64,000 bases of DNA from Rickettsia typhi (GCA_945872855.1 CAMCAW010000001.1:4108-68107); one strand, 5' to 3'. Numbered from the stretch's first letter, positions 8,119 to 62,568 are shown. Notes: generated from the letters alone by a model not told the origin. Made by a program: numbers and translations.

Positions 8119-8751
8119 ATGAAAAAAATTTTATTGGCAATTCCAAAAGGTCGCATTCTTGAAGAATTGATTCCGTTATTCACTAAAAATGGCTTGCAAC
8201 CAGAAAAAGATTTCTTCAACGAAAACTCGCGCAAGCTAGTATTTGCAACGAATTTCAAGAATCTTGAAATTGTAAAAGTGCGCAGTTTCGATGTCGCAAC
8301 TTTTGTAAAATTTGGCGCGGCAGATTTAGGAATTTGCGGCAAAGATGTGCTTGAAGAATTCTCTTCGCAAGAAATTTTCCCTGTGCTAGATTTAGGAATT
8401 GGCAAATGTCGTTTATCGGTGGCGGCGAAAGAATCTTCGCAGTTGAATTTGCAAAATATTAGTCATATTCGCGTTGCTACAAAATATAGTGAAATTGCTA
8501 AAAAATATTTTGCAGAAAATGGTGTGCAGGCTGAAGCCATTAAGCTCAACGGTTCAATAGAGATTGCGCCGCAACTTGGTTTGTGCGATTTTATTTTAGA
8601 TTTAGTGAGTAGTGGAAAAACGTTGGTTGAAAATAACATGGTTGAATTAACAAAAATTATGGATGTAAGCTCTTATTTAATTGTTAATCGCGCGTCGTTT
8701 AAAACTAAAAATGTTGAAGTTAATAAGTTAATCGCGCTATTTAAATCTTAA
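8119..8751 (+). CDS. hisG: ATP phosphoribosyltransferase, short form
   Basis: LAIPKGRILEE..., SFDVATFVKFGAADLGICGKDVLEE, VATKYSEIAKKYF, LNGSIEIAPQLGLCDFILDLVSSGKTLVEN. 210 aa, which is HisG-short length. Confidence 0.92.
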   Translation: MKKILLAIPKGRILEELIPLFTKNGLQPEKDFFNENSRKLVFATNFKNLEIVKVRSFDVATFVKFGAADLGICGKDVLEEFSSQEIFPVLDLGIGKCRLSVAAKESSQLNLQNISHIRVATKYSEIAKKYFAENGVQAEAIKLNGSIEIAPQLGLCDFILDLVSSGKTLVENNMVELTKIMDVSSYLIVNRASFKTKNVEVNKLIALFKS

Positions 8752-21835: not shown

Positions 21836-22423
21836 ATGTCCAATAAATCAAAAAAAACAAAAGAAGCTTGGGCAAAATTTTTATGCGATTATGTGCCGTT
21901 GATAATTTTTATTATTATTTATAAATTCTCTCCTGCTTCCGATCCTTTAATACCAGCTACTTTCGGCCTTTTAGTTTCAAGTTTTATAGCGCTAATTATC
22001 GCTTATATTCTCACTAGAAAAATTGCCAAAATGCCATTAATTTCGGCTATAATTTTAGGAGTTTTTGGGGGCCTCACGCTAATTTCTGGCGATGATTTAT
22101 TTATCAAAATTAAACCAACTTTAATCAATTTATTATTCGCGGCAATTTTGTTTTATGGATATTTTTCAAAGAAGCCTCTAATCAAGCATTTGTTCGGTGA
22201 AAGCCTGAAAATGGAGGATCGCGCTTGGTTAATTTTGTCTTTGCGTTGGGCAATATTTTTTATTTTTCTCGCAGTTTTAAACGAATTTATTTGGCGTAGT
22301 TTTTCAACTGATTTTTGGGTAAATTTCAAAGTATTTGGCGTATTTCCAATCTCAATGATTTTTACGCTTTCGCAAGTGCCATTCATGATTAAAAATATAA
22401 AAGGGAAGGGCGATGCCTCATGA
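21836..22423 (+). CDS. yciB: intracellular septation protein A (YciB/IspZ)
   Basis: VFGGLTLISGDDLFIKIKPTLINLLFA...KKPLIKHLFG...FWVNFKVFGVFP, collinear with the YciB family. Confidence 0.88.
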   Translation: MSNKSKKTKEAWAKFLCDYVPLIIFIIIYKFSPASDPLIPATFGLLVSSFIALIIAYILTRKIAKMPLISAIILGVFGGLTLISGDDLFIKIKPTLINLLFAAILFYGYFSKKPLIKHLFGESLKMEDRAWLILSLRWAIFFIFLAVLNEFIWRSFSTDFWVNFKVFGVFPISMIFTLSQVPFMIKNIKGKGDAS

Positions 22424-23330
22424 TTTTCTCTCCAACGAACAAAAAGGCGTTCTTTGCGTAATCGCTTCTGGCTTACTATATGGCCTTCTCGGCTATTTTG
22501 GCATGACAATAATCGCTGAAGGTTTTTCGCGTTATAACATGCTTTTTTGGCGCTTTTCTGTTGCCAGCATTTTCATGCTTTTCATCATCTCACCCAAAAT
22601 AAAAACCCTCTCTGAGAGTCCTCGAGAAGTTCTCAAAATGTTTTTCTTTGGCGCTATATTTCATGGTGTTGCGGTTATCCTCTATTTCACCTCTGCGATC
22701 TATGTAGGCACTGGCATTGCGATGGTTTTATTTTTTCTTTATCCAGTTATCGTAATACTTTTGAATCGCGTATTTTATCATACAAAAATCAGCAAAACTT
22801 ATTATTATTCAATCTCGCTAATCCTTCTGGGCCTAGTGCTCCTAATTGATATTACAAATTTAAATCTCAATATTTTTGGTATTGTAATTGGAATTCTTGA
22901 TGCAGTTTTTTATGCGCTTTATGTCGTTGCAAGCAAGAATAGCAAGCTCTCATCGGTCTTAGCAACTTTTGCAATGGTGCTTGGTTGCGTTCTTACTACA
23001 TTTATTTTTTCTGTCTTCGATAGCAGCTTTCAAGTGCCGACAACTTTCGCTTTGTGGCTTAATGTAGTCACCATGGGCGTGCTCTGCACAGCTTTGCCAA
23101 TTTTATTTTTCTTGAAGGGTTTGCAATATATCGATTCAGCGAAAGTTTCAATATTGGGCGTTACCGAGCCGCTGGCTGTAATGTTTTTCAGCTATATTTT
23201 GTTGGGAGAAAGAATGACTCTATTACAGTTTTGTGGCGCGATGTCAATTTTGTTTGGCGCAGTAATGGTGCTGAATCCGCTCAAGGCCTTAAATTCTTTT
23301 AGAAACCGCAATCGCAAATTTCGTGGTTAG
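22413..23330 (+). CDS. DMT-superfamily (EamA) transporter
   Basis: 305 aa, ten TM helices, two EamA-like halves. Overlaps the yciB stop by 11 nt. Confidence 0.8.
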   Translation: MPHDFLSNEQKGVLCVIASGLLYGLLGYFGMTIIAEGFSRYNMLFWRFSVASIFMLFIISPKIKTLSESPREVLKMFFFGAIFHGVAVILYFTSAIYVGTGIAMVLFFLYPVIVILLNRVFYHTKISKTYYYSISLILLGLVLLIDITNLNLNIFGIVIGILDAVFYALYVVASKNSKLSSVLATFAMVLGCVLTTFIFSVFDSSFQVPTTFALWLNVVTMGVLCTALPILFFLKGLQYIDSAKVSILGVTEPLAVMFFSYILLGERMTLLQFCGAMSILFGAVMVLNPLKALNSFRNRNRKFRG

Positions 23331-24638: not shown

Positions 24639-25136
24639 ATGAATAAAACAAAAATTGCAATCTATCCAGGAACTTTTGATCCGATCACTTTTGGGCATCT
24701 CGATATTATCAAACGCGCCAGTGAATTTATTGATCATTTGGTGATTGCTGTCGCTAAAGACACCGCCAAGAATCCTTTATTCACGCTGGCAGAAAGGGTT
24801 GAGCTGGTAGAAGATGAGGTAGCAAATTTGGGCAGCGATACAAAAATTTCGGTTGAGCAATTTGAAGGATTGCTAGTAGATTTTGCTGTAAAAAAAGGTG
24901 CACGACTAATTATTCGCGGTCTGCGCGCCGTTTCTGATTTTGAATATGAATTTCAAATGTTCGGCATGAATGCAAAATTAAATCCCGAAATTCAAACAAT
25001 ATTTTTGCCTGCCTCAGAAAATAATCATTTTATCGCATCGAAGTTCGTAAAAGAAGTGGCGCGGCTTGGCGGCGATGTTACAAATTTTGTTTCGCCTTAC
25101 GTGGTAAAAAAACTTAAGGAAAAAATGAAAATTTAA
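24639..25136 (+). CDS. coaD: phosphopantetheine adenylyltransferase
   Basis: AIYPGTFDPITFGHLDII nucleotidyltransferase motif. 165 aa. Confidence 0.95.
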   Translation: MNKTKIAIYPGTFDPITFGHLDIIKRASEFIDHLVIAVAKDTAKNPLFTLAERVELVEDEVANLGSDTKISVEQFEGLLVDFAVKKGARLIIRGLRAVSDFEYEFQMFGMNAKLNPEIQTIFLPASENNHFIASKFVKEVARLGGDVTNFVSPYVVKKLKEKMKI

Positions 25137-25303
25137 AAGTTAAGTTAGAAAAAAGTTAAGTGAAAATATGATAAAAAAGAATTCTCGACTATCTTAGTCT
25201 CGCCCCTAGACGGCACGCCGAAGCGGGGCGAGACTAAGATAGTCGAGAATTCTTTTTTATCATATTTTCACTTAACTTTTTTCTAACTTAACTTTTAAAT
25301 TTT
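25128..25303. repeat. 176-bp perfect palindrome (79-bp arms, 18-nt loop TAGACGGCACGCCGAAGC); member 1 of a conserved-loop long-hairpin family
   Basis: I checked base by base that 25128-25206 is the exact reverse complement of 25225-25303. The loop is 25207-25224. The left arm overlaps the last 9 nt of coaD, including its stop codon. Confidence 0.95.
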
Positions 25304-25318
25304 ACAAAATTCTCACAA

Positions 25319-26311
25319 ATGCAAAACATTAAAGACGAAATCTGGATCATCGTCGATAACCGCCCCGGCAACTATTCGCAAGCCATCGGCCTTGCTAACG
25401 AAATTGGTTTTGAATCGCGCATAATCAATATTTCTTACGGATTTTTTTCTTTCTTGCCTAATTTTATTTTAGGCTCTTCGCTGCTCGGTGTAACGCGCGC
25501 CACCAAAGATAAACTCAAAAGTTTTGGCTATTTTCCAAAGCTGATAATCTCTGCGGGGCGTAGATCTGCCCCCGTTGCGCTGCACATAAAAAAACAATCG
25601 CAAAATCGCAGCAAAATTGCGCAAATAATGAACCCAGAATTTGCTCACGAAAAATTCGATTTCATCATTTTGCCAAGCCACGACAAAATTAGTGGCCGCC
25701 ACAAAAACATCGTCCGTACCTTAGGATCGCTCACTAAAACCAACGAACAAGCAATTAATGCAGAGTGTGAAAAATTTTCCTCATGGTTTTGCGATTATCA
25801 AAAAACTAAAATCGCTGTTTTAATTGGGGGCGATTCTAAAAACACAAAACTCGCTAAAGAATCGGCGATAAAATTGATCAAAAAATCTTGTGAAATTGCT
25901 AAAAATATGAACGCAAAATTGTTAATTTTAAATAGTAGGAGAACTTCTGCTGAAGTTACAAAGTCAATAAAATCAAAGCTTTACGGCGATTTTAAATTTT
26001 TTAATTGGAAAGAAATAACGAATGGTGAAAATCCTTATTTAGCAATTGTGGGCTTTAGTGATTTTTTTATAGCCACTGGAGATTCGGTTTCGATGATCTC
26101 AGAAGCTTGCTCTACAGGCAAGCCGCTTTATATTTTTGACGAAAAAAATATTTCCTCTATGAAACATAAAAAATTTCATCAAGAATTAATCGCGCAGAAT
26201 TATGCAAAAAGAATTAATAAAACAACTTGCCTATTAGAGAAATTTTCGGCAAAAAAGTTGCAAGAAACTAAAAGAGTTGCGATGATAATTCAAAATGCGC
26301 TGAAGAATTAA
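25319..26311 (+). CDS. ELM1/DUF1022-like protein (putative glycosyltransferase-fold; 'mitochondrial fission ELM1' family)
   Basis: The N-terminus IWIIVDNRPGNYSQAIGLANEIG and the ~330-aa length resemble the alphaproteobacterial ELM1-family pattern. Recognised from memory only. Confidence 0.5.
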   Translation: MQNIKDEIWIIVDNRPGNYSQAIGLANEIGFESRIINISYGFFSFLPNFILGSSLLGVTRATKDKLKSFGYFPKLIISAGRRSAPVALHIKKQSQNRSKIAQIMNPEFAHEKFDFIILPSHDKISGRHKNIVRTLGSLTKTNEQAINAECEKFSSWFCDYQKTKIAVLIGGDSKNTKLAKESAIKLIKKSCEIAKNMNAKLLILNSRRTSAEVTKSIKSKLYGDFKFFNWKEITNGENPYLAIVGFSDFFIATGDSVSMISEACSTGKPLYIFDEKNISSMKHKKFHQELIAQNYAKRINKTTCLLEKFSAKKLQETKRVAMIIQNALKN

Positions 26312-48187: not shown

Positions 48188-48268
48188 ATTAACAGGCTTG
48201 CTCGAATAACGTGCGAATCAAAGACCGAAGTATTTCTTTTTGATAGTTCGCAGAACTTCAATTATAAA

Positions 48269-48682
48269 TGTAAGGCAAGCTATAAGCCGGATTTTGTACT
48301 GTTTGCACAGCAATGATCATTCGTCTAGGACCAGCGTCGCCACTGGCCTCAAGCAACCTACCCGGATGACAACTCAAAGACAAGTCTGCATATTGCTATG
48401 CGCGCCATCCCTATTTGGTCTTGCTCCTAGCGGGGTTTTTCGAGATGCATGTTACCATGCAAAGCGGTGAGCTCTTACCTCGCCTTTTCACCCTTACCGC
48501 CGGCGTTTAAAGGCAGGCGGCGGTATATTCTCTGTGACACTTTCCCTCCACAAGCCCTATATATTCAAGCTTGCAGGCCAGCTCTTAACTGGTGCTATTT
48601 CCTTGCGGAGTCCGGACTTTCCTCTTATTTTCATCGCCATTTTGCAATAGCGAAAAACAAGCGACCATCCACTTGCCTTACA
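48269..48682 (-). ncRNA. rnpB: RNase P RNA (bacterial type A)
   Basis: The minus strand reads ...AAGAGGAAAGTCCGGACTCCGCAAGG... (CR-I), AGGGTGAAAAGGCGAGGTAAGAGCTCACC, and ACAAAATCCGGCTTATAGCTTGCCTTACA at the 3' end. The P1 helix is GTAAGGCAAGT (5') pairing with AGCTTGCCTTAC (3'). The region is locally GC-rich and has no credible CDS. Confidence 0.9.
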
Positions 48683-48832: not shown

Positions 48833-49999
48833 ATGAAAACGGTTTTATCAGGAATTCAGCCTTCTGGCAATTTGCATTTGGGCAATTATTTGGGATCTAT
48901 CCGCAACTGGATTGGCTTGCAAGATTCGCATCGCTGTTTGTTTGGGGTGATGAATTTGCACGCGATCACGGTGGCTCAAGATCCGCTTGTGTTGCGGCAA
49001 AATATTTTTGATGCGGCGGCGGTTTATTTGGCTTGCGGGTTAGATCCGAAGAAGGCGAGTATTTTTGTGCAGGGGGAAGTGCGTGAGCATGTAGAGTTGG
49101 CGTGGGTTCTTGGGTGTTTAACGCCGATGGGGTGGTTGGATAGAATGACGCAGTTTAAGGATAAAACCAGTATTTCAAATACGTTGGAAAATGCAATTAC
49201 AAAGTCACCTAAAAGTGTTTATAATTTATTTGAATCTTGCTATAAAGAATTAAAACAAGAAGAAGGTTTTAAGCAATTAAAATTGAGCGATGATTACATA
49301 GCTAAGTTGGATAAAGGTGGATTTTTTGAGATTTTAGTAAAAATTTTAGAAGATTCTCGACGTGATCAAGCGCATCTTGGCCTCTACTCCTACCCCGTTC
49401 TAATGGCCGCCGATATTCTACTTTACCACGCAGATCTCGTGCCTGTCGGTGAAGACCAAAAACAGCATCTCGAGCTTACGCGCGACTTAGCTGGTGCTTT
49501 CAACCGCCGCTACAAAACAGAATATTTCAAACTGCCCGAGCCCATGATTCTCAAGGACACAAAGCGCATCATGTCCCTTCAAGACGGCACCAAAAAAATG
49601 TCGAAATCCGATGAATCCGATCTCTCGCGCATCAACCTTGAAGACGCGCCAGAGTTGATTGTAAAGAAGGTGAAAAAGGCCAAAACCGATTCTCTCACCG
49701 AAATTTCTTACGACGAAAATCGCCCCGAAATTTACAACTTACTCAACATCTTCGCCAGCATGTCAGGCAGGCTTCCGCAGGCTATCGCCGAAGAATATAA
49801 AACCGCAGGAAACGGCAAATTTAAAGGCGATCTCGCAGAAATTATAGTTGAAAATTTGCGTCCAATCCAAGATAATCTGGTGCGCTTCAAGCAAGATAGC
49901 GGCTTTATCGCTAATGTTTTGCGGCAAGGCCAAGAAGATGCGACAAAAATTGCCAGCAAAACTCGCCAAGAAGTTTTTAAATTGGTTGGGTTAATTTAG
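48833..49999 (+). CDS. trpS: tryptophan--tRNA ligase (with a ~60-aa internal insertion)
   Basis: PSGNLHLGNY (HIGH-type), YPVLMAADILLY, VPVGEDQKQHLELTRD, KMSKS. 388 aa versus the ~330 typical. Confidence 0.93.
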   Translation: MKTVLSGIQPSGNLHLGNYLGSIRNWIGLQDSHRCLFGVMNLHAITVAQDPLVLRQNIFDAAAVYLACGLDPKKASIFVQGEVREHVELAWVLGCLTPMGWLDRMTQFKDKTSISNTLENAITKSPKSVYNLFESCYKELKQEEGFKQLKLSDDYIAKLDKGGFFEILVKILEDSRRDQAHLGLYSYPVLMAADILLYHADLVPVGEDQKQHLELTRDLAGAFNRRYKTEYFKLPEPMILKDTKRIMSLQDGTKKMSKSDESDLSRINLEDAPELIVKKVKKAKTDSLTEISYDENRPEIYNLLNIFASMSGRLPQAIAEEYKTAGNGKFKGDLAEIIVENLRPIQDNLVRFKQDSGFIANVLRQGQEDATKIASKTRQEVFKLVGLI

Positions 50000-51093: not shown

Positions 51094-51099
51094 GTTTTT

Positions 51100-51233
51100 A
51101 AAATTCGAAATTGAAATTATTAAATAAAGTCTGCCTTATCTTACTTAGTTCAAGCCCTAGACGGCACGCCGAAGCGGGTTTGAACTAAGTAAGATAAGGC
51201 AGACTTTACTTAATAATTTCAATCTAGAATTTT
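51100..51233. repeat. 134-bp long hairpin (58-bp arms, 4 non-Watson-Crick positions) with loop TAGACGGCACGCCGAAGC; family member 2
   Basis: 51100-51157 pairs with 51176-51233. The exceptions are 51107/51226, 51109/51224, 51124/51209 and a G-T at 51154/51179. The loop (51158-51175) is identical to the loop at 25207-25224. The element fills the spacer between convergent nadA and the GNAT gene. Confidence 0.92.
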
Positions 51234-51794
51234 CTAAGTTAAGAATTCTTCGCGCAAAATACTAAACATATAAACATCAACCAACTTGCCACGATGGTAG
51301 CGGTGTTGGCGCAAGCAGCCTTCATATTTAAATCCGCATTTTTCTAGCAGGCGCACCGAAGCTTCGTTGTAAGTTGAGGTTACGGCTTCAATACGGTTTA
51401 TCGCCATCACTTTAAATCCGTAGCGCAATAATTCGAGCACAGCTTTTGTCATAATGCCGCGACGCCAATATTCTTGCGCCATATCATAGCTAAGTTCAAT
51501 GCGATTGTGATAGGTATTGTGCGAGCTAAAGCCGATTGAGCCAATCATACTATCGTCTTTTTTGTCAGCGATGGCGAAGTAAATTCCGTCATTATTATAG
51601 AAAACATTGCGCCAATAATAAAGCTCGCGACGCGCGTCTTCTAAGCTTTGCGGCACTTCGGTAAGGATATATTTATTAACTTCGGGGTCGGTGTAATATT
51701 TAAAAAAATCAGGCACGTCTTTATCTTGTTGTTCGCGCAAAACAAACTCGCCAAGATCGATTATTGGAAAAATTTTATTTGTAGATGGATACAT
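51234..51794 (-). CDS. GNAT-family N-acetyltransferase (RimJ/RimL-like)
   Basis: 186 aa; acetyl-CoA-binding region YWRRGIMTKAV. Typical RimJ-like length. Confidence 0.8.
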   Translation of the reverse strand: MYPSTNKIFPIIDLGEFVLREQQDKDVPDFFKYYTDPEVNKYILTEVPQSLEDARRELYYWRNVFYNNDGIYFAIADKKDDSMIGSIGFSSHNTYHNRIELSYDMAQEYWRRGIMTKAVLELLRYGFKVMAINRIEAVTSTYNEASVRLLEKCGFKYEGCLRQHRYHRGKLVDVYMFSILREEFLT

Positions 51795-56400: not shown

Positions 56401-57645
56401 ATGGCTCTTATTGTTCAAAAGTTTGGTGGCACCTCGGTTGGTGATATTGCGCGCATTCAAAATGTGGCGAAAAAAGTCAAAGCTGAACTTGATAAAAAAA
56501 ACCAAGTAATTGTTGTTGTTTCAGCAATGTCGGGCGTTACAAACCAGCTGGTGAGTTATTGTAATGAAGTTTCGGCCTTGATGAGCGATGAATCTCTGGC
56601 AGAATATGACGCCGTTATTGCCAGCGGCGAGCAAATCACCTGCGGCCTTCTGGCGCTTGAGTTGCAGAGCATGGGCTATCAAGCTCGTTCTTTCTTGGGC
56701 TGGCAAATTCCTGTGGTCACCGATGACGTCCACAGTAAGGCGCGCATCGATGAAATTGACGGAAAATTTTTGTTGGAAGCGCTAAAAACGCATCACGTTA
56801 TTGTGATTGCGGGCTTTCAGGGTGTGAATCAGGCCACTAATCGCGTTACCACGCTTGGTCGTGGCGGGTCAGACACTTCAGCTGTGGCAATTGCCGCTGC
56901 GGTTAAGGCTGATTTATGCGATATTTACACAGATGTAGATGGCGTGTACACTACAGACCCGCGCATTACAGACAGGGCGTGCAAGCTCAATAAAATCGCT
57001 TACGAAGAAATGTTGGAGATGGCTTATAGCGGCTCGAAAGTGCTGCAAACTCGCTCTGTTGCTATGGCGATGTCGCATAATGTGCGAGTGCGTGTGCTTT
57101 CAAGTTTTCAGGAAGTTACAGAAAATTCGGGAACAATTTTGGTTAATAATGAGGAGGAAATCATGGAAAGACGAGTTATCACAGGAATTAGTTATAGCAA
57201 AAATGATGTTAGAATTACTCTATCGCGCATGCCTGATCATCCCGGCCTCTCGGCGTCAATATTTGGCGTGCTGGCGAAAAAAGAGGTGAACATCGATATG
57301 ATTGTGCAAAATGCTAGTGCCGATGGCAAATCTGTCGATATAACTTTCACAACTTCTAAAGATGAGCTAGAGCGTGCTAAGGCTGCACTTGATTCCGTCA
57401 AAAATGAAGTGAAATATGAGCAAATTTCAATTGATGAAAATGTTGCGAAAATTTCAGTGATTGGCGTTGGTATGGTTTCGCACTCTGGTGTGGCTCATAC
57501 TATGTTTAAAACTCTTGCAGATAAAGGAATCAACATTTTGGTGATTTCAACTTCTGAGATTAAAATTTCGGTTTTGATTGCGAGAGAATACGGTGAACTT
57601 GCGGTTCGCGTGCTTCATACTGCTTACGGATTAGATAAGCAGTAA
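56401..57645 (+). CDS. lysC: aspartate kinase
   Basis: VQKFGGTSVGD, VVVVSAMSGVTN, two C-terminal ACT-like regions. 414 aa. Confidence 0.93.
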   Translation: MALIVQKFGGTSVGDIARIQNVAKKVKAELDKKNQVIVVVSAMSGVTNQLVSYCNEVSALMSDESLAEYDAVIASGEQITCGLLALELQSMGYQARSFLGWQIPVVTDDVHSKARIDEIDGKFLLEALKTHHVIVIAGFQGVNQATNRVTTLGRGGSDTSAVAIAAAVKADLCDIYTDVDGVYTTDPRITDRACKLNKIAYEEMLEMAYSGSKVLQTRSVAMAMSHNVRVRVLSSFQEVTENSGTILVNNEEEIMERRVITGISYSKNDVRITLSRMPDHPGLSASIFGVLAKKEVNIDMIVQNASADGKSVDITFTTSKDELERAKAALDSVKNEVKYEQISIDENVAKISVIGVGMVSHSGVAHTMFKTLADKGINILVISTSEIKISVLIAREYGELAVRVLHTAYGLDKQ

Positions 57646-57656
57646 CTTTAAGTTGG

Positions 57657-57813
57657 GTGTAAAACTTTTAAGAATGTTAATTAAATTTCTCTTAAGTTTA
57701 TAATTCTCTCTTGCCTTACTCGCCCCTCTTCGGCGTGCCGTCTAGGGGGGCAAGGCAGAGAGAGAATTATAAACTTAAGAGAAATTTAATTAACATTCTT
57801 AAAAGTTTTACAC
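57657..57813. repeat. 157-bp long hairpin (54-bp perfect outer arms) with loop TCTTCGGCGTGCCGTCTA, the reverse complement of TAGACGGCACGCCGAAGA; family member 3, inverted orientation
   Basis: 57657-57710 is the exact reverse complement of 57760-57813. The inner stem is imperfect: tgcctt/aaggca and cccc/gggg helices separated by an asymmetric bulge. The loop is 57727-57744. Confidence 0.92.
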
Positions 57814-57845
57814 TGGCTTTTTAATTGTTTTAATAAAAAAATATT

Positions 57846-59513
57846 ATGCCGACTTTAACAAAATTCATAGAATTAGGAATTTCAGATACAATGATCGAAA
57901 CCTTGCGTAAGAAGGGTTTTGAAGAGCCTACTCCTATTCAAGCGAAGACGATCCCATTTTTACTTGCCAACAAAAAAGATTTAATCGGTAAGGCGCAAAC
58001 TGGAACAGGAAAAACTGCCGCCTTCGGCATTCCACTAATTGAAAATATCGTTACTAACCAAGGCAAGGTTCAGGCCTTAATTTTGGCCCCAACTCGCGAA
58101 TTGGCTATTCAAGTTACAGAAGAGTTGAGCTCTTTTGCTGGTGCGTTTCAAACTAAAATTATTTCGATTTATGGTGGCCAGCCGATCGATCGTCAAATTT
58201 CGCGCTTGCAGCGTGGGGTTGATATTGTGGTAGGAACGCCCGGTCGCGTGATTGATCACTTGAACCGCAAGACGCTAGATATTTCAAAAATCTCTTACAT
58301 CGTGCTTGATGAAGCTGATGAAATGTTGAATATGGGTTTCATTGAAGATATCGAAGCGATTTTGAAATTGGCTCCTAAAGCTAAGCGCACAGTGCTTTTC
58401 TCGGCTACTATGCCAGATCATATCGAGCGTTTGGCGAAGAAATATATGGGCGATTATGAATTGATTTCGGTGATGAGTAACAATGCTGGGCGTCCGAATA
58501 TTGAGCAAATTTATTTCGAAGTTCCGCAATCAGATAAATTTGAAGCTTTACACAGAATTATTGATGTGGAAGAAAGTTTTTATGGCATGGTTTTTTGTCG
58601 CACCAAAGTTGATGTTGATGAAATTGCTAGCAAGCTAACCAACCGTGGCTTTAGAGCCGAAACGCTTCACGGCGATTTGTCTCAAGGTCAAAGAGAGAAA
58701 GTTTTGCAGAAATTTCGCAATAAAAAAGTGAACATCCTTGTGGCGACAGACGTTGCGGCGCGCGGGCTTGATGTTGATGATTTAACTCACGTTATCAATT
58801 ATGCTTTGCCGCAAGATCCAGAAAGTTACATGCATAGAATTGGCCGTACAGGCAGAGCTGGCAAGAGTGGAACGGCTATCACGCTGATCACTCCTTCTGA
58901 GTATCGCAAGTTGATTTCTATTCAAAAAATGGCTAATGCAACAATCACTAAACAAAAAGTGCCGAATGTAAAAGACGTTATTGATAGCAAAAAACAGCGC
59001 ATCATGACTTCTATCATCAAGGCTATGGAAGATGGCGGTTTTGCCGATTTACAAGGCATTGCAGCCGAAATTTTAGCGAGCAATTCTGATCCAAAAATTG
59101 CTCTTGCAGCTTTGTTGAAAATTGCTTTCAAAAATGAACTTAGTGAAAGTAGTTATAGTGAAATTGGCGATGGCTCTAACAAAAAACGCGACCGCGATTA
59201 TAATTCTTATGATGAACGTGGCGGCAACAGCGATCGTGGTGGCGATAAAAGAGGTGGTTATGTTGATCGCAAGGGAACGGCGCGCCTCTTCATTGCTAAG
59301 GGTCGCAACGATGGAATGGATCCAAGAAAATTGGTTGATTTTATTCAGAAAGAAACCGGCGTTGATCAAAGAAAAATTGATGATGCGAAAGTTTTTGATT
59401 CATTTTCGTTTTTTGCAGTACCATTTCAAGATGCAGAAAATATTCTGCATGTCTTTCAAAAGAGTGCTGGCGGCAGCAGATCGCTGGTTTCTAGAGCTAA
59501 AGATAAGAAATAG
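57846..59513 (+). CDS. DEAD-box ATP-dependent RNA helicase (DeaD/CsdA-like with DbpA-type C-terminal domain)
   Basis: AQTGTGKT, DEAD (VLDEADEM), SAT, HRIGRTGRAG. RGG/D-rich linker and a C-terminal RNA-binding-like domain. Confidence 0.92.
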   Translation: MPTLTKFIELGISDTMIETLRKKGFEEPTPIQAKTIPFLLANKKDLIGKAQTGTGKTAAFGIPLIENIVTNQGKVQALILAPTRELAIQVTEELSSFAGAFQTKIISIYGGQPIDRQISRLQRGVDIVVGTPGRVIDHLNRKTLDISKISYIVLDEADEMLNMGFIEDIEAILKLAPKAKRTVLFSATMPDHIERLAKKYMGDYELISVMSNNAGRPNIEQIYFEVPQSDKFEALHRIIDVEESFYGMVFCRTKVDVDEIASKLTNRGFRAETLHGDLSQGQREKVLQKFRNKKVNILVATDVAARGLDVDDLTHVINYALPQDPESYMHRIGRTGRAGKSGTAITLITPSEYRKLISIQKMANATITKQKVPNVKDVIDSKKQRIMTSIIKAMEDGGFADLQGIAAEILASNSDPKIALAALLKIAFKNELSESSYSEIGDGSNKKRDRDYNSYDERGGNSDRGGDKRGGYVDRKGTARLFIAKGRNDGMDPRKLVDFIQKETGVDQRKIDDAKVFDSFSFFAVPFQDAENILHVFQKSAGGSRSLVSRAKDKK

Positions 59514-62456: not shown

Positions 62457-62568
62457 GTTTGTAGAAGTGAGTGGATTATTTACCTGACTAAAATGTGTCA
62501 CGTTATGTCTCTGCAGGACACGCTGACGCATTTTGAGTTGGGTAAATAATCCACTCACTTCTACAAAC
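62457..62568. repeat. 112-nt long hairpin (28-bp perfect outer stem) in the divergent dadA/addB promoter region
   Basis: 62457-62484 (gtttgtagaagtgagtggattatttacc) is the exact reverse complement of 62541-62568. Imperfect pairing continues inward (aaaatgtgtca / tgacgcatttt; tgtc / gaca). The centre is unrelated to the TAGACGGCACGCCGAAG core. Confidence 0.9.

Follow-up and report, generated by a model that had tools for sequence, protein, structure and literature searches.

The hairpin that follows the lysC gene in the 64,000-nt stretch of DNA analysed here (the window) can be compared with several described kinds of repeat. The definition and behaviour of prokaryotic MITEs have been set out in detail (PMC10969869). 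REP/REPIN sequences, which are associated with RAYT, are characterised in the accessible part of their description as palindromes of 20–40 bp that have a conserved stem sequence and are tagged at one end by GTAG or CGTC (PMC3733652), and template switching is a process that, according to the accessible parts of two reports, homogenises the arms of inverted repeats, enlarges them and inverts their spacers (PMC8604942, PMC13100816). The hairpin after lysC belongs to a family with three copies in the window, each built of a GC-rich centre of 18 nt (TAGACGGCACGCCGAAGC), a short G/C clamp and AT-rich arms of 55–80 nt. Neisseria DNA uptake sequences are conserved 10–12-mers that include a CTG core and occur about once per kb (GCCGTCTGAA); a sequence of this type was rejected as an explanation because only GCCGTCT is common to both and the density here is three per 64 kb. 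REP/REPIN was rejected as well because the stems of 55–80 nt are unconserved and CGTC lies inside the loop and not at the end of the stem. A literature search for repeats with a conserved loop and a variable stem found no description. The reading ranked first, which is held with about even confidence, is that of a non-autonomous MITE-like palindromic insertion element whose centre is the sole sequence-constrained part and of which the hairpin after lysC is a genuine copy.

The core occurs three times in the window (25207–25224 and 51158–51175 on the plus strand, 57727–57744 on the minus strand) where 0.02 occurrences are expected, and none of 100 shuffles reached three. Four long inverted repeats were identified in the window and three of them carry the core. 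Copy 1 (25126–25306, plus strand) has perfect arms of 79 nt (25128–25206 and 25225–25303) around a core on the plus strand and two further pairs beyond the arms, across a 1-nt bulge. Copy 2 (51094–51239, plus strand) has arms of 58 nt (51100–51157 and 51176–51233) that are 93% complementary, a core on the plus strand and degenerate outer pairs, and its site lies between TAG, the stop codon of nadA, and TAA. The hairpin after lysC, which had been put forward as a third family member, was confirmed as such, its core (TAGACGGCACGCCGAAGA) carrying a single mismatch to the cores of copies 1 and 2, both of which end in C. The copies measure 146–181 bp, lie between genes and have arms of 27–32% GC. 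A search for relic cores or clamps elsewhere in the window found none.

Pairing between the arms of one copy is perfect or nearly so, and likeness between copies is confined to the vicinity of the centre. Arm homology was judged against an empirical null of AT-rich genomic segments, which is stricter than mononucleotide shuffles. Under this null no significant likeness was seen between the outer arms of different copies (p = 0.05, 0.35 and 0.35), and the 25 nt adjacent to the core gave p = 0.03 for copies 1 and 2, p = 0.004 for copies 1 and 3 and p = 0.6 for copies 2 and 3. The claim that the arms of copy 3 share nothing with the other two beyond a loop-proximal segment stands under the same null. 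Homology over the full length of the arms, which was significant with mononucleotide shuffles, held under the AT-rich null in the inner 25 nt only. The motif GGGGCGAG directly after the core is common to copies 1 and 3. A candidate terminal motif, GTAAAAYTT, was rejected as not significant under the same kind of null (p = 0.06–0.4 for the termini).

Copy 3 is flanked by lysC (aspartate kinase, 56401–57645, plus strand) upstream and by a gene for a DEAD-box helicase with a DbpA domain (57846–59513, plus strand) downstream. The stop codon of lysC ends at 57645 and the stem starts after 11 nt, the distance given in the earlier note. That note had also described outer arms of 54 bp with perfect complementarity; the complementarity was upheld at 100% but the inverted-repeat search measured 55 nt for each arm (57657–57711 on the left, 57759–57813 on the right) with 47 nt between them. 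The inner left stem (57712–57726) consists of TGCCTT, the internal loop ACTC (57718–57721) and the GC clamp GCCCC, and the inner right stem (57745–57758) consists of GGGGGGCAAGGCA and a bulged G at 57758. Positions 57712–57717 pair with 57752–57757 (TGCCTT/AAGGCA) and the clamp pairs 57722–57726 with 57747–57751 (GCCCC/GGGGC), leaving a 4-nt loop on the left against a 1-nt bulge on the right, in agreement with the asymmetric internal loop that had been reported. The apex (57727–57744, minus strand) is the reverse complement of the family core with the single change of C to A, exactly as had been read, and the A at core position 18 pairs with the T at position 1. The sequence of the right inner stem is GGGGGGC, where full complementarity to the left arm would require GGGGCGAGT. 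A possible co-variation of the core substitution with the clamp, which had been proposed as a check, is found in this single case: the change creates the T:A pair between core positions 1 and 18 and, together with the altered GGGGGG clamp, the stem runs into the core. Copy 3 has a predicted folding energy of −108 kcal/mol for RNA (z = −17) and of −68.6 kcal/mol for DNA (z = −20.5), with about −68 kcal/mol and z-scores of −20 to −23 on either strand. Each arm is itself a quasi-palindrome (57662–57699 and 57771–57808 are 74% identical in the same direction, with the centre TTAATTAA), and nested alternative cruciforms are possible within copy 3.

Long perfect palindromes are a known class of assembly and library artefact, arising as fold-back chimeras or from adapters, and independent Logan contigs of the sequencing run ERR5863120 break within the arms, about 30 nt inside them on both sides of copy 3 (L003 and L095) and of copy 1. 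Breaks at this depth would be expected of a k = 31 graph at a real repeat. The three loci combine distinct arms with one core, and each continues on both sides into the correct syntenic genes. Copy 2 is identical in a separate ENA MEGAHIT contig (L096), and a contig from a second run (SRR36525879; L035, positions 1–128, corresponding to 25191–25318 of the window) extends across the loop of copy 1; its right arm matches exactly, and two neighbouring positions of the core differ by transitions (TAGACGGC to TAGATAGC). Against this evidence an artefact is extremely improbable, and the hairpin after lysC is confirmed as real.

The window is dense housekeeping DNA of 39% GC that contains a bacterial RNase P RNA and no tRNA. 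The closest homologues of its lysC and ELM1-family genes were found in metagenome-assembled genomes, some of which are labelled Rickettsiales, Alphaproteobacteria or Pseudomonadota, and the host appears to be an uncultured alphaproteobacterium whose related metagenome-assembled genomes are labelled Rickettsiales. Genes at 8751–11771, 13522–15390, 25319–26311 and 26318–32083 encode two TrbL/VirB6-domain proteins (1006 and 1921 aa), a protein with a Ulp1-like protease domain and a protein of the ELM1 "mitochondrial fission" family, a set that suggests a host-associated, Rickettsiales-like lifestyle. The RNase P RNA (class A, 258 bits) is located at 48267–48680 on the minus strand, just upstream of a TrpRS/TyrRS-family ORF (48833–49999, plus strand) that has 388 aa in the window and 324 aa in the closest relative (L021), its first listed start being probably too far upstream. 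An ORF for an EamA-family transporter (22413–23330, 305 aa) has no syntenic counterpart in L030 and L032 and overlaps the 3′ end of the convergent COQ7 gene, and a Pif1-type helicase is present in syntenic relatives.

The three sites were compared with about 85 kb of syntenic DNA from relatives that have the same gene order and 85–93% protein identity. The lysC–helicase spacer measures 200 nt in the window and 66–86 nt in the relatives, the coaD–ELM1 spacer 182 nt against 1–36 nt, and the nadA/acetyltransferase spacer 140 nt against a 6-nt overlap (TCATAA) in the closest relative; the last site reads ...ATGTCGTAG in the window, followed by 146 nt and then by TAAGAATTCTTCGCG.... The C-terminus of CoaD, up to the stop, is KEKMKI in the window and LHKLGKK in the relatives, and its last two codons and stop lie within the left arm of copy 1. 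The acetyltransferase ends in EEFLT and the stop instead of EEFL and the stop, copy 2 providing the last codon and the stop of this convergent gene. All three sites are empty in the relatives, an insertion polymorphism of the kind expected of MITEs. The core was absent from the roughly 85 kb of syntenic DNA (up to four mismatches, and an nhmmer search with the family profile), as was any inverted repeat of comparable length, with the exception of an operator-like palindrome of 27 nt; at the density of the window (three per 64 kb) about four copies would be expected there. Judged by the comparison with these relatives, all three copies are net insertions at the 3′ ends of genes and appear to be specific to this lineage. 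For annotation, such elements break short-read assemblies and rewrite gene 3′ ends, as in the new stops of coaD and the acetyltransferase gene.

The junctions were inspected for target duplications. TGG lies directly to the left of the stem of copy 3 (57654–57656) and again directly to its right (57814–57816), where it is followed by CTTTTT, and tentatively this may be a 3-bp target duplication. The flanks of copy 2 (TAG/TAA) agree with the empty site of the closest relative (L021) and are a plausible target duplication. The flanks of copy 1 (AAA/AAA) may be ancestral because A-runs also occur in a relative, 19 nt apart.

The fourth long inverted repeat of the window is a hairpin at 62457–62568 with 37-nt arms of 92% complementarity, a stem that extends to about 50 bp and an RNA minimum free energy of −80.5 kcal/mol (z = −13). 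It has a different apex, without the 18-nt core, and is a clean insertion of about 112 nt in the divergent DAO/AddB-like spacer (188 nt in the window, 81–85 nt in the relatives), where it sits between the half-sites of an operator-like palindrome (TTGGATAAATGTT...AACATTTATCCAA) that is conserved in the relatives. This lineage has thus acquired long hairpins by insertion outside the core-bearing family as well. The relatives in turn carry insertions that are missing from the window (L021:4277-5413 and L030:2020-3568), namely a PcfJ-like gene that separates the acetyltransferase gene from ftsY, and an IS1595-family transposase with a small neighbouring gene beside the Pif1-type helicase.

The earlier note had supposed that the arms were derived locally, which would mean that only a short orientation-free core of 18–34 nt is mobile and that the long arms grow from the local sequence at each site. 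The lack of likeness between the outer arms of different copies is in line with this, as are the internal short duplications and nested quasi-palindromes of the arms, the fourth long-hairpin insertion with its different apex, and the capacity of template switching to enlarge inverted repeats, as given in the accessible part of one report (PMC13100816). The ancestral site of copy 2 contradicts it. In the closest relative the nadA and acetyltransferase genes overlap by the 6 nt given above, and both coding sequences that flank copy 2 are intact, so that there was no spacer and all 146 nt of copy 2 were inserted without a local template, whereas growth by template switching would convert an existing flank and add no length. 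Comparisons of the arms with their own flanks and with the ancestral spacers of the relatives gave no signal (1 of 22 tests reached p = 0.009), and a comparison with about 250 kb of available related DNA gave no other match. As far as such comparisons can show, the arms arrived with the element and not from local DNA; the supposition of locally derived arms was not sustained and is very unlikely to be correct.

The arms also record how they were formed. The left arm of copy 1 contains a tandem duplication of 16 nt (25135–25150 and 25151–25166) whose units differ at two positions, and both the duplication and the two differences are mirrored exactly in the other arm (25265–25296). Exact mirroring of a diverged duplication means that the changes arose first and that one arm then became a copy of the other. 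Intramolecular template switching or hairpin-primed copying may have produced the identity of the arms or maintained it. Both would fit the arm-to-arm copying, and in hairpin-primed synthesis each new copy would be produced from a single arm. The single substitution in the core of copy 3 points the same way in the predicted fold, where the T...C ends of the core become a T:A pair and the stem, with the GGGGGG clamp, enters the core.

Mismatches between arms are few: 4 of 58 positions in copy 2 (three of them transitions), 0 of 79 in copy 1 and 0 of 55 in copy 3. The four-fold degenerate sites of the window and its closest relative are only 54–63% identical. Perfect or nearly perfect arms at this level of divergence imply that the copies are either young relative to the split of the two lineages or actively homogenised. 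On the first of these two readings the intact cores need no selection, and three young copies with unrelated arms would be unlike an ordinary MITE burst; on the second reading, with old copies and homogenised arms, selection in place has to be assumed for the invariant core, which would point to a host function rather than to a selfish element.

The orientation of the core is not tied to the neighbouring genes. The core is on the plus strand in copy 1, between coaD (plus) and ELM1 (plus), and in copy 2, between nadA (plus) and the acetyltransferase gene (minus), and on the minus strand in copy 3, between lysC (plus) and the helicase gene (plus). The GC skew is positive across the whole window, which is probably a single replichore. 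The flip of the core follows neither the direction of transcription nor that of replication, given the positive skew throughout and the shared plus orientation of lysC and the helicase gene, and this independence makes a DNA-level element more likely than a strand-specific RNA motif. Of the two proposals made earlier on this point, that of a core free to take either orientation relative to the upstream gene holds for the three copies available (two on the plus strand, one on the minus strand), and that of an element that acts at the DNA level is favoured further by the four arm mismatches of copy 2, which show no G-U strand preference. In a near-perfect palindrome the orientation is visible in the loop only and can differ through insertion either way round or through inversion of the spacer. 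The inverted centre of copy 3 would then reflect an insertion the other way round or a spacer inversion by the same template switching that acts on the arms.

The position of the copies next to genes raises the alternative of a host-functional RNA hairpin that ends or stabilises the upstream mRNA, or serves as an RNase III site, with the apex as a protein- or RNA-binding module. All three copies lie within 0–11 nt of a stop codon and fill the intergenic space. In either orientation the apex is predicted to adopt a small, defined fold, which has a 4x4 internal loop (UAGA/AAGC), a helix of 3 bp and the tetraloop CACG, and the CTTTTT after copy 3 lies 3 nt beyond the stem; RNA-level effects are known for the Correia and ERIC elements (PMC10969869), and an invariant core in old copies would imply selection in place. 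Several observations count against such a role. Copy 3 presents the reverse complement of the apex to the same direction of transcription, the relatives lack the element at each of the three sites, and copy 1 lies inside the coaD–ELM1 pair, which is tight in the relatives and where a strong terminator would be harmful. The two transitions in the second allele of copy 1 break the predicted 3-bp apical helix without a compensating change, and the arm mismatches of copy 2 show no G-U strand bias. A consensus scan for intrinsic terminators (a short GC-rich stem, a loop of 3–8 nt and a U-tract) found none at the three copies, nor is there a consensus promoter at any of them. A promoter-like match at 57864–57892 was rejected as it lies inside the helicase ORF and is no more than shuffles give. 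At gathering thresholds only RNase P passed in an Rfam search of the window, and a permissive Rfam search with two of the hairpins returned only generic long-hairpin models resembling miRNA precursors, far below threshold. A host role at the RNA level is thus unlikely, though together with the single-stranded recombination site considered next it is one of the two main rivals of the MITE-like element, a growth of the arms from local sequence and an artefact both being unlikely.

The wider distribution of the family was examined with the core. The exact 18-mer in a hairpin of this family was found in none of 185,579 species-representative genomes, nor in the JGI/ENA metagenomes or IMG/VR, the source genome belonging to neither the genome nor the metagenome set. 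Scans with the core 18-mer plus the preceding C gave two matches in the representative genomes and 17 in the metagenomes, and a scan of viral contigs with a 16-mer core gave 59 matches; none of these is a family member, and all are in GC-rich or coding contexts without a long hairpin. BLAST searches with copy 1 against plasmids and with copy 3 against phages returned nothing relevant. An exact core in a hairpin of 6–7 bp (Ga0315277_10002973, L018:2033-2105) was set aside as chance, a judgement rather than a proof, since it lies in the last codons (LRRAV) and the stop of a PhoU-domain ORF on an unrelated contig of 42% GC. A transposase, recombinase, integrase or HUH enzyme is not encoded within the 64-kb window.

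The second main rival is a recombination or transposition site that is read as a single-stranded DNA hairpin by an enzyme of the integron-integrase, HUH/RAYT or IS200-IS605 type, for which the stems need only pair. This would predict the combination seen here, in which the loop and clamp are invariant, the stems are unrelated between copies yet pair perfectly, and the copies lie at gene 3′ ends; perfect arms would be expected in new copies or in those copied recently. To our knowledge, stems of 55–80 nt have no precedent in systems of these types, which counts against such a site, as does the lack of an enzyme of this kind among the genes of the window. The two loop orientations on what is probably one replichore would place the recognised strand on different replication templates. 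The ends of the element (GTGTAAAAC...GTTTTACAC) do not match the attC boxes RYYYAAC/GTTRRRY, the window encodes no integrase, and the 5′ end of the stem lacks the GTAG/CGTC tag that REPs carry according to the accessible part of their description (PMC3733652). A single-stranded site of one of these described types is therefore improbable. A more general form of recognition would have the family mobilised, or otherwise acted on, through the structure of a folded single strand: the GC-rich apical loop and clamp would be the sole sequence read, any complementary arms would suffice and new copies would be born as perfect hairpins by arm copying. This form is also rather unlikely; if it is true, the family would represent a kind of bacterial mobile hairpin that is defined by its loop and not by its ends.

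The MITE-like insertion element therefore remains the leading interpretation, one that rests on three copies and one allele. Such an element would enter as a complete hairpin in the manner of a MITE-type mobile element, and the mobilising machinery would constrain the centre and the ability to pair, not the sequence of the arms. Its effects on the host would include new stops for coaD and the acetyltransferase gene and the separation of adjacent or overlapping genes, and a very stable hairpin in the transcript could attenuate transcription or attract RNase III. Against this interpretation, the window encodes no transposase or recombinase and the termini and outer arms are not significantly alike; copies from a recent MITE burst should be nearly identical and have conserved ends, and the opposite is seen here. 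If the family proves to be genome-wide, it would conflict with the usual MITE route, in which deletion derivatives of insertion sequences are recognised by their ends and amplified as near-identical copies, and would point to loop-reading mobilisation or to strong arm-to-arm copying in a reduced alphaproteobacterial genome. It would also offer a natural system in which to study the bacterial tolerance of perfect palindromes of 150–180 bp.

In comparison with known systems, the copies resemble MITEs in being smaller than 500 bp, non-coding and AT-rich, in occupying AT-rich intergenic sites, in carrying inverted repeats and in their insertion polymorphism (PMC10969869). The family departs from them in lacking alignable dispersed copies with conserved ends, the likeness being restricted to the core and about 25 nt; MITEs have conserved terminal inverted repeats and align over their full length, whereas here the centre is conserved and each copy is a near-perfect palindrome over 55–80 nt. 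With the Correia elements (CREE) of Neisseria, ERIC, QMITE2 of Coxiella and SPRITE of pneumococcus the copies share very stable stem-loops, a location near gene ends, the capacity to supply gene ends and presence or absence among relatives (PMC10969869). Rickettsia palindromic elements (RPE) are similar in their Rickettsiales-related host and in being palindromic repeats of about 150 bp that add codons (PMC10969869), copies 1 and 2 adding one or two codons and a stop. RPEs, however, are inserted in frame inside ORFs and have a conserved peptide and a family consensus, whereas the present copies lie at or after stops and have no arm consensus, a distinction drawn from the description of RPEs.

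Integron attC sites share with the family the conservation of structure while sequence varies and the location at gene 3′ ends. In attC the base of the stem (R/L boxes) and the extrahelical bases are conserved and the centre is variable, an arrangement that is reversed in the present family. The correction of quasi-palindromes by template switching, as far as the accessible parts of the two reports describe it (PMC8604942, PMC13100816), explains the perfect arms, the mirrored duplication, the creep of the stem that created the T:A pair of copy 3 and the inversion of the spacer; it is, however, a mutational process and not an element, and leaves the shared core and the net insertion of 146–181 nt unexplained. 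The palindromic GC clusters of mitochondria (of yeast and others) have a GC-rich palindromic core in AT-rich spacers, spread sporadically in the manner of transposable elements and show putative target duplications (PMC4478555). They differ from the present family in measuring 30–60 bp, in being GC-rich throughout, in their organellar location and in lacking AT-rich paired arms of 55–80 nt. With their rapid diversification, merger and shuffling and no known transposase (PMC4478555), these clusters are nonetheless the nearest analogue of the family in behaviour.
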